This document shows, piece by piece, positions 61,954-64,000 of a stretch of 64,000 nucleotides of DNA (position 1 is its first letter; every line of letters begins with the position of its first letter). Both the position numbers and the translations under genes were made by a program. Source of the DNA: Escherichia coli (GTDB lineage: Bacteria > Pseudomonadota > Gammaproteobacteria > Enterobacterales > Enterobacteriaceae); assembly GCF_003334355.1 (NCBI RefSeq), contig NZ_QOWP01000013.1; one strand, 5' to 3'. The notes under the pieces were generated by a model. That model was not told where the DNA came from. It saw only the letters and a list, made by a program, of their open reading frames with translations, and did no database searches.

Positions 61954-62041
61954 GGTGAGGTGTCCGAGTGGCTGAAGGAGCACGCCTGGAAAGTGTGTAT
62001 ACGGCAACGTATCGGGGGTTCGAATCCCCCCCTCACCGCCA
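61954..62041 (+). tRNA. serX: tRNA-Ser (long variable arm, anticodon GGA)
   Basis: 88-nt sequence GGTGAGGTGTCCGAGTGGCTGAAGGAGCACGCCTGGAAAGTGTGTATACGGCAACGTATCGGGGGTTCGAATCCCCCCCTCACCGCCA with 7-bp acceptor stem, T-arm GGGGG-TTCGAATC-CCCCC and encoded CCA. Confidence 0.95.
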
Positions 62042-62465
62042 TATTTAAAAAAAAGCCCGTACGAAAGTACGGGCTTTTTTTTCGTATATTGCACACACCG
62101 GGGGGGATGAGAAGCCCCGACCGGGGGTCGACAACTGGCGACAGCCAGTTGGACAGACCGTGAACGCAGTGAGCGGGCTGCCCGCAGGGCGAGCGAAGCG
62201 AGTCAATCCCCCCCTCACCGCCATATTTAAAGAAGAGCTCGTACGAAAGTACGGGCTTTTTTTTCGTATATTGCACACACCGGGGGGATGAGAAGCCCCG
62301 ACCGGGGTTCGACAACTGGCGACAGCCAGTTGGACAGACCGTGAACGCAGTGAGCGGGCTGCCCGCAGGGCGAGCGAAGCGAGTCAATCCCCCCCTCACC
62401 GCCATATTTAAAGAAGAGCTCGTACGAAAGTACGGGCTTTTTTTTCGTATATTGCACACACCGGG
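62023..62465 (+). repeat. Tandem direct repeat (~181-182 bp period, about 2.4 copies), each copy beginning with the last 19 nt of tRNA-Ser
   Basis: aatccccccctcaccgcca occurs at 62023, 62205 and 62386; each is followed by a near-identical terminator hairpin and structured spacer; copies differ by a few substitutions and a 1-nt G-run length change. Confidence 0.9.
62047..62082 (+). terminator. Symmetric rho-independent terminator after serX
   Basis: aaaaaaaa-gcccgtac-gaaa-gtacgggc-tttttttt perfect hairpin with A/T runs on both sides. Confidence 0.85.
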
Positions 62466-62596: not shown

Positions 62597-63583
62597 TCAC
62601 TTATTAAAATGCCCCCAACGGAAATACATGTCACATGCCATCATAAAATCGTTATGCCAGAGGAATCGACAATAGAAAAAATAGTAAATTAAGCACGGTA
62701 CATAGCAGAGTAAAAAATAGGCTTCAAACCAAATCCGCCATTCCACAAGCGTTGCCAATACCGACACCAGCGTAATCCACATCACTTCAATAACCAGCAA
62801 TATGAATAACCGAAGCCAAAGCGGCTTGGCAAAAAAGGTCGACAACGCATTTTCACTGGAGAAAAACAGATCGATTTCCTGCAAAAAAAGCCTGCCCAGA
62901 AAAGCGTACCGCTTGGAGAAGCGCAGAAAAAACAGATTAATCGCCAACACTACGCCACAAAGAATGAGCAATGCAATTATCGATTTAAACGTTAACCACT
63001 GCCCCTCTGTCACAAAAGAATCACTGTTACGCAACGGGCTGATAGTAAGCAGGTTAACAACCGTTGAGATGCACACCGAAAGCAGCACATAGCGAGTCAG
63101 ACTTTTATATTTTACTTTTTTCGCTACTGAAATAGCGACCTGCTTGACATAACTGGTGCGGATCATCCGAAACAGCAGAAAGATGACCAACGGCCCAAGT
63201 AACGAAATCAGGAACAGCGCATATAACGAGGGTAGAAGCTGGTATAGCCCCCAACTCATTGCACTCAACATGATTAACGACAGAAATCCTGCCACCAGAG
63301 GTTGTGTAAGAAATAATTCTATTTTGTGGTTCTGCTTTTTCTTAAACCACGAAAAATCGATATTCTTCGTGACGCATTTATAAGCCCAGTACGCCTTGAG
63401 ATCAAAAATAAAATTATACAGCACCAGAGCCAGAATCCCACTAACTACACCAATATCCTCTGATGGAAAAGTAAACCCTGCATTCTTCTAATAAAAGCCT
63501 ATCAGAATAAGTCCAATAGCATAAATGTATATCAGATTTCGTTTATCCTGAAAGCGAATAAAAGTTAAATAATCAGGAATCAT
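62597..63583 (-). pseudogene. ycdU: ycdU-like polytopic inner-membrane protein ORF, 329 codons, interrupted by an in-frame TAG at codon 32
   Basis: ATG at 63583 and stop at 62597 span 987 nt in one frame; the only interruption is TAG at 63488-63490; downstream 275-codon ORF (track 62597..63424) is in the same frame. Confidence 0.6.
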
Positions 63584-63923
63584 TTGAATACCTTTGCATC
63601 ACTAAATGCTTTACGACAATGCATAACTCGTTGCTGATCCACGCCAGCAAAATCATTTAACATATTCCCCAAATAGGGCTTATTACTTATTTCAAGGAAA
63701 GCTACCGGGGTTGGCATATTCAGAAATGTATCGAGAGATTCAGTCCATTTCACCGTATGAGTTAAGTGTAATGAGAGATTTTCTTTGATAATTGACGGAG
63801 CGACCTCGCTTTTTGCTGTTACGTTCATCAGAACCTGATGCTCTGGCGAAGCGATATCCAGTCCGGCAAGATAATCGCGCATTGCCTGAACGCCGTCTTC
63901 CATCAAACGCGTGTGCCAGGCAC
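63580..63923 (-). pseudogene. ymdE: C-terminal fragment of a FabD-like acyltransferase, 5' end truncated by the IS element
   Basis: Translated frame aligns with the C-terminal third of FabD in this window (e.g. VKWTESL vs VQWTKSV); frame runs up to the IS3 inverted repeat; stop TGA overlaps the ycdU ATG (ATGA). Confidence 0.6.
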
Positions 63924-64000
63924 TGATCTTACCCAGCAATAGTGGACACGCGGCTAAGTGAGTAAACTCTCAGTCAGAGGTGACTCACATGACAAAAACA
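63924..64000 (+). mobile_element. insE: Left end of an IS3-family insertion sequence (terminal inverted repeat and first 4 codons of orfA), continues beyond the window
   Basis: Begins TGATCTTACCCAGCAATAGTGGACACGCGGCTAAGTGAG, which I recognise as the IS3 left inverted repeat, followed by ATGACAAAAACA (MTKT) as in the IS3 orfA start. Confidence 0.7.

Follow-up and report, generated by a model that had tools for sequence, protein, structure and literature searches.

The 64,000-nucleotide stretch of Escherichia coli DNA analysed here (the window) stops 77 bases inside an IS3 element that is equivalent to IS3D of K-12 MG1655 and lies between ymdE and the diguanylate cyclase gene dgcT. We consider it very probable (roughly 0.9) that this locus is a genomic island trimmed by a deletion that extended from an anchored IS3. 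The identity of the IS, its boundary, the truncation of the gene beside it, the lack of a target duplication, the size of the missing DNA and a second, nested junction are all direct observations.

The IS3 left end at the window edge

Bases 63924-63962 of the window read TGATCTTACCCAGCAATAGTGGACACGCGGCTAAGTGAG and match the IS3 left inverted repeat (IRL) at 39 of 39 positions, both by direct reading and by sequence matching. The window contains this 39-mer once. Since none of 100 shuffled sequences matched the IRL, we rejected the possibility that the match at its edge is a coincidence. All 77 bases from 63924 to 64000 are identical to the first 77 bases of IS3D in K-12 MG1655. The junction around 63923/63924 reads directly as ...GTGTGCCAGGCAC followed by TGATCTTACCCAGCAATAGTGGACACGCGGCTAAGTGAGTAAACTCTCAGTCAGAGGTGACTCACATGACAAAAACA. 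A sequence search of the 64-kb window found no right repeat or second IS3 end, the IRL alone being present. The features of the region, with the evidence for each, are as follows.

62023-62465, plus strand: 181-bp tandem repeats, 2.4 copies, with the serX 3' end and an RtT-like element (TRF; Rfam tRNA and RtT matches)
62597-63583, minus strand: ycdU, last gene of the island operon, with an ATGA overlap with ymdE (translation compared with L001, a complete genome with the window-type junction)
63580-63923, minus strand: ymdE, C-terminal remnant (residues 201-313 and stop) of a FabD-like ACP S-malonyltransferase paralogue (alignment to the intact O157 protein)
63923-63924, no strand: deletion/IS junction, equal to 2063/2064 in O157:H7 strain 2159 (L005), without target duplication (BLAST breakpoints and junction strings)
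63924-63962, plus strand: IS3 left terminal inverted repeat, 39 nt, starting 5'-TG (39/39 match, 0 expected by chance)
63924-64000, plus strand: first 77 nt of the 1,258-bp IS3, IS3D-equivalent (identity to MG1655 IS3D)
63989-64000, plus strand: start of IS3 orfA (insE), ATG ACA AAA ACA = MTKT (direct read)

The orfA start corresponds to the start of the annotated transposase CDS at position 7390 of L001, and the share of orfA inside the window amounts to its first four codons. A terminal inverted repeat at 63924 and an orfA beginning MTKT at 63989-64000 had both been proposed in the original prediction; both are exact, and the IS3-family element that it had recognized is IS3 itself. It had further placed the insertion point inside a coding frame, with the IS beginning where the FabD-like frame ends. 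The frame is indeed cut at 63923/63924 and the boundary at 63924 holds, with the qualification that the frame lies on the minus strand and that it is its truncated 5' side that stops there. The underlying observation and its coordinates were thus correct. As a mechanically called open reading frame, the FabD-like frame includes 16 nt of IS sequence and reaches a TTG at 63939.

When the junction and the IS were scanned for promoters and terminators, nothing exceeded the shuffled expectation and no outward promoter-like site faced ymdE and ycdU; the scan therefore makes no case for IS-driven expression of these genes.

The gene cut by IS3 and its neighbours

The ymdE remnant is identical at 111 of 113 residues to the intact 313-residue protein of O157:H7. 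The catalytic GHSVG motif, with the active-site serine, occupies residues 95-99 of that intact protein and lies in the part deleted from the window. Against the NCBIfam fabD model (TIGR00128, an equivalog), the remnant aligns to profile positions 197-264 only and scores 37 bits, with a cut-off of 260.9. The intact O157 protein, at 178.7 bits, also stays under this cut-off, which makes it a paralogue resembling FabD rather than the housekeeping enzyme itself. The MG1655 annotation lists the remnant as pseudogene ymdE, and RefSeq marks it "missing N-terminus".

Upstream of the junction, the open reading frames of the window follow the order csgG, ycdZ, ycdY, ycdX, ghrA, tRNA-Ser (serX) and ycdU. 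When the last 1,401 bases of the window were compared with complete genomes, the best full-length matches were many complete E. coli chromosomes with one mismatch each, and none of the best 30 was 100% identical. These best matches are annotated with ycdU, an incomplete ACP S-malonyltransferase lacking its N-terminus, and an IS3-like element IS3 family transposase. The single difference from them lies at window position 63489, where a T replaces the C found in L001 and MG1655 and turns minus-strand codon 32 of ycdU from TGG to TAG (W32*). This amber codon could be a private mutation of the source genome or a sequencing error. A second single-base difference from MG1655, at 62744 inside ycdU, is C in the window and T in MG1655, and others lie further upstream; judged from these differences, the window comes from a close relative of K-12 MG1655 and not from MG1655 itself.

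A complete IS3 in genomes sharing the junction

Everything to the right of position 64000 is taken here from genomes that share the window junction and not from the window's own genome. In L001, IS3 occupies positions 7325-8582 (1,258 bp) and is identical to MG1655 IS3D at all 1,258 positions. The same length of 1,258 bp is found in MG1655 and in an O104:H4 genome (L003), and falls within the ~1.2-1.55 kb of the IS3 family. The two arms of the L001 copy are 39 nt each, 72% complementary and 1,180 nt apart, a pairing seen in the matching genomes and not in the window. The L001 copy starts with TG and its right inverted repeat (IRR) ends ...GGATCA, in agreement with the TG...CA termini and ~20-40 bp repeats by which such elements are recognized.

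By translation, the L001 copy encodes an OrfA of 99 residues and an OrfB of 288 residues that overlap at ATGA. An A4G motif is found at IS position 328, in the orfA/orfB overlap region and upstream of the overlap itself. IS3 frameshifting is said, by Sekine and Ohtsubo, to take place at A4G. The RefSeq annotation of L001 has a joined transposase CDS with the remark "programmed frameshift". OrfB scores 339 bits against NCBIfam NF033516 (transpos_IS3, cut-off 160) and matches the Pfam domains rve (1.3e-27), rve_2 (2.2e-20) and HTH_21, which assign it at the level of the family match. By these predicted features the element is a normal IS3, with 39-nt imperfect repeats, orfA and orfB, a -1 frameshift and a DDE (rve) transposase.

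We infer that the window's genome has the same continuation as the 1,479 genomes with an identical junction. From these, the right end of IS3 is predicted at window-equivalent position 65181: beyond 64000, we would expect the IS3 body to reach about 65181 and close with ...GGTAGGATCA, after which AAATGCCGCTTTATGG should lead into the dgcT 3' end. The expectation that the other IS end should lie about 1.2 kb on, outside the window, is borne out by the 1,258 bp seen in genomes with the identical junction. A transposase ORF and a right inverted repeat, the two features whose absence was to count against the original prediction, are both present in the extension provided by L001.

IS3 flanks and the missing segment

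In genomes with the window-type junction, the flanks read ...GCCAGGCAC-IS3-AAATGCCGC..., and the three bases outside the IS3 ends in the K-12 type are CAC on the left versus AAA on the right. The 3-bp target-site duplication that had been anticipated is therefore not supported; it is absent around IS3 in both the K-12 type (CAC/AAA) and an O104 type (GCC/AAA). A target duplication belongs to the insertion event, so its absence points to a later rearrangement and is no argument against the identity of the element as IS3. To the right of IS3 in L001 and MG1655 lies the 3' end of dgcT, with 10 bp between its stop codon and the IS. Neither genome has the first 200 codons of the FabD-like gene on the far side of IS3.

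What these 200 codons are attached to elsewhere can be seen in O157:H7 strain 2159 (L005), in which an intact 942-bp FabD-like gene is followed by ~31 kb up to dgcT. By BLAST, the breakpoints in L005 fall at 2063/2064 on the left and 33804/33805 on the right, a span of 31,740 bp; the right breakpoint is ambiguous by one base, since the A that closes the IS is shared with the O157 sequence. The cluster headed by the intact gene comprises ABC transporter and LolA-like genes; two ketosynthases, an ACP, FabZ-like, SDR and holo-ACP synthase genes; a two-partner-secretion haemagglutinin pair and a chaperone-usher fimbrial operon; and regulators, with an EAL-domain gene adjoining dgcT.

O-island 47 (OI-47) of O157:H7 EDL933 has been described as 31,727 bp carrying z1528-z1556 (PMC8565820). 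It spans exactly the interval that IS3 replaces here, from codon 200 of the FabD-like gene to 10 bp past dgcT, and all that the window retains of it is the final 344 nt of the FabD-like gene. Although our mapping was done on strain 2159 and not on EDL933, the mapped 31,740 bp and the published 31,727 bp are 13 bp apart, and this agreement identifies the missing DNA as the equivalent of O-island 47. Unrelated flanks, the lack of the rest of the gene and the 31,740 missing bp together mark the locus as an IS-bordered deletion scar and not a simple insertion. Of the original prediction, IS3, its boundary, the interrupted frame and a far end ~1.26 kb away thus survive, whereas the target duplication does not, and a simple insertion gives way to a deletion scar.

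A second left junction and its distribution among genomes

The O104:H4 genome (L003) carries a 1,258-bp IS3 at the same locus, differing from the K-12-type copies at 2 of 1,258 positions. Its right junction, GGATCA followed by AAATGCCGC, is identical to that of the K-12 type. Its left junction, at L005 position 2248/2249, lies 185 bp further into the FabD-like gene than that of the window and leaves a gene remnant of 528 bp, with GCC to the left of IS3 and AAA to the right. One fixed and one variable junction argue that the IS is anchored beside dgcT and that DNA was deleted on the side of its left end.

The distribution of these arrangements was counted in 5,426 complete RefSeq E. coli genomes.

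K-12/window-type contiguous left junction: 1,479 of 5,426
O104-type left junction: 716 of 5,426
Shared IS3-dgcT right junction: 2,298 of 5,426
Uninterrupted gene across both breakpoints: ~401 (1,117 minus 716) of 5,426
Uninterrupted (empty) right site: 389 of 5,426

The K-12-type count of 1,479 was obtained at E <= 1e-25, which forces a contiguous match; a looser count of 2,195 also takes in the O104 type, since pieces up to ~540 bp apart are then joined. About 103 genomes (2,298 minus 2,195) combine the right junction with a left flank of neither type and imply that more junction types, or rearrangements mediated by IS3, exist at the site. About 2,800 genomes have no trace of the FabD-like gene. 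The competing models of the deletion predict three intermediates: one in which the IRL adjoins the right edge of the island, and two in which the gene continues directly after the IRR, at the K-12 or at the O104 position. Each was found in 0 of the 5,426 genomes.

Two assemblies named after the same laboratory strain fall into different types. NZ_CM135829.1 (H148; 4.83 Mb), labelled "DH5alpha", has a 225-bp match of the O104 type and not the K-12-type junction, whereas another DH5α assembly (4.58 Mb) matches the K-12 remnant; the label of NZ_CM135829.1 is probably wrong.

Borders of the serX-linked island

In two genomes that lack the island (NZ_CP173438 and NZ_CP069549; L007 and L008), serX lies ~105 bp from dgcT (8853-8958 in L007), and ycdU, ymdE and IS3 are all missing. 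The alignment of the window to such genomes ends at position 62144. The extra DNA starts at about 62145, inside the 181-bp repeat, and its other border would fall within the dgcT 3' end, 44 bp past the right end of IS3. These borders place ycdU, ymdE and the IS all within the remains of a serX-linked island of ~33 kb. In the island-less genomes examined, dgcT is 1,368 bp long versus 1,359 bp and its last ~35 bp differ, which puts the right border of the island inside the dgcT 3' end, with a changed C-terminus of the protein.

Copies of the 181-bp repeat unit match one another at 98% and contain a terminator-like hairpin, with the Rfam RtT match at 62268-62404; L001 has fewer copies than the window. 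Since a tyrosine integrase gene lies between serX and ycdU in both O157:H7 and O104:H4, the repeats look like duplicated attachment sites of serX-targeting islands.

A further rearrangement is seen in NZ_CM167659 (L004, 6000-6800), in which 40 bp of ymdE are left, the ymdE-IS3-dgcT-pgaA segment is lost and an IS1 directly abuts a truncated pgaB. IS-associated deletions have struck this locus repeatedly.

Origin of the deletion

We propose that an ancestral IS3 inserted 10 bp downstream of dgcT, where the ~33-kb serX-linked island has its inner edge; this island would consist of ycdU plus O-island 47 of O157:H7. This first insertion likely produced an AAA duplication, the O157 site reading GCTAAAATGCC. 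The DNA beside the left end of IS3 would then have been deleted up to codon 200 of the FabD-like gene, a loss of ~31.7 kb that would also have taken the left copy of the target duplication. The deletion or deletions may have been made by the IS3 transposase itself, acting from the fixed IS (adjacent deletion). Both this order of events and the part given to the transposase are read from end-states, the only states found among the 5,426 genomes.

Adjacent deletions by IS3 have been reported to be transposase-dependent and of various lengths, with 6 bp or less of homology at their end points (PMC8860574). In the experiments of Kanai et al. 2022, and in those of Sekine et al. 1994 cited there (PMC8860574), the IS stays intact, one junction is fixed and the other varies, and the end points show neither homology nor a duplication, as at the present locus. 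The pattern here is the same: the IS is intact, the right junction conserved, the left junction variable (by 185 bp) and no duplication present. The experimental system differs in scale, in that it used plasmids and ~1 day of growth (PMC8860574), while the deletions considered here are ancient, lineage-fixed and 31.6-31.7 kb in size for the two junction types, and their mechanism is deduced from what they left behind.

The same anchored IS3 could also have lost its neighbouring DNA through homologous recombination with a second IS3, inserted in the same orientation in the FabD-like gene, a route that we regard as possible but unlikely. RecA-type recombination between two such copies would drop 31.7 kb and leave one hybrid IS between unrelated flanks, and so predicts exactly the end-state observed, a complete 1,258-bp IS flanked by CAC and AAA with no duplication. 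These genomes moreover carry IS3 in several copies, at a median of 3 places each. IS3-family elements transpose by a copy-out-paste-in route that readily gives nearby second copies. Against recombination stands its demand for two same-orientation insertions within 185 bp of one gene, or for a second local hop. Joins of the IRR to the gene continuation at either position, or of the IRL to the right edge of the island, occur in 0 of 5,426 genomes, and transposase-dependent adjacent deletion has been demonstrated experimentally for IS3 (PMC8860574). Because the two left junctions are only 185 bp apart and recombination would need two separate insertions to account for them, we favour adjacent deletion made by the transposase as the more plausible origin.

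That the arrangement of K-12 and the window could instead be ancestral, with O-island 47 inserted later in the O157 lineage, is suggested by the definition of O-islands as O157 DNA absent from K-12 (PMC8565820), and they are often called acquired. This is most improbable given the structure of the locus. The window keeps residues 201-313 alone, without the catalytic motif, of a gene that is whole in O157; ycdU overlaps the FabD-like gene as an operon partner; and the island-less genomes have none of ycdU, ymdE and IS3, with serX next to dgcT. The truncated gene and the bare sites in those genomes indicate that the window represents a decayed island and not an empty site.

A simple insertion of IS3, with a 3-bp duplication and the rest of the FabD-like gene ~1.26 kb further on, as first supposed, fits a left boundary that lies inside a coding frame, the left side being all that the window shows, but it predicts an IRR followed by CAC and CGCTCACACCGAG... 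(CAC+CGCTCACACC...), and is hardly credible when L001 and K-12 MG1655 both continue from IS3 into dgcT with CAC against AAA at the flanks and when, with 1,479 genomes sharing the exact junction, none has the right end of IS3 followed by the remainder of the gene at this position.

Relation to known annotation and significance

The element, its position and the truncated gene are already part of the K-12 reference annotation and the literature. In MG1655, IS3D (insE4/insF4, b1027/b1026; 1,094,245-1,095,502) and the pseudogene ymdE (b1028) form the same junction as in the window, and the neighbours ycdU, serX, ghrA and ycdXYZ-csg are also the same. MG1655 differs from the window by two substitutions between 62500 and 64000, at 62744 and at 63489 (the ycdU amber codon), and the body of the window's IS lies beyond its edge. 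A 2016 paper noted that ymdE "appears to be a 388 bp gene foreshortened by an IS3 element" and reported a 945-bp homologue in other phylogroups (PMC4951805). The nested second junction and the population counts were not found described in a limited comparison with the literature, and are a product of routine comparative genomics.

A study of mastitis E. coli suggested that selection, rather than chance, may keep the surviving stub (PMC4951805). Each of the two left junctions, which are separated by 185 bp, has become fixed in hundreds to thousands of genomes, and one could imagine that IS3, anchored beside dgcT, trimmed the island at least twice and that the ymdE-ycdU stub may be kept by selection, an idea that we regard as quite speculative and improbable as it stands. 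On selection the evidence is neutral: the remnant is identical to the O157 protein at 111 of 113 residues, but it has no catalytic motif and ycdU carries an amber codon here, and together these neither exclude nor support it. If the idea were true, the locus would be a natural, datable series of IS3 adjacent deletions.

Beyond correct annotation, the finding has little significance in itself. It does illustrate that, where an IS end falls within a coding frame, a simple insertion with a target duplication should not be taken for granted. In genomes of this type, ymdE and ycdU to the left of IS3 are best read as the last remains of a serX-linked island, with IS3 marking a loss of ~31.7 kb, and the two nested junctions would be a clear case, provided by nature, of an IS that stays anchored while the deletions adjacent to it vary.
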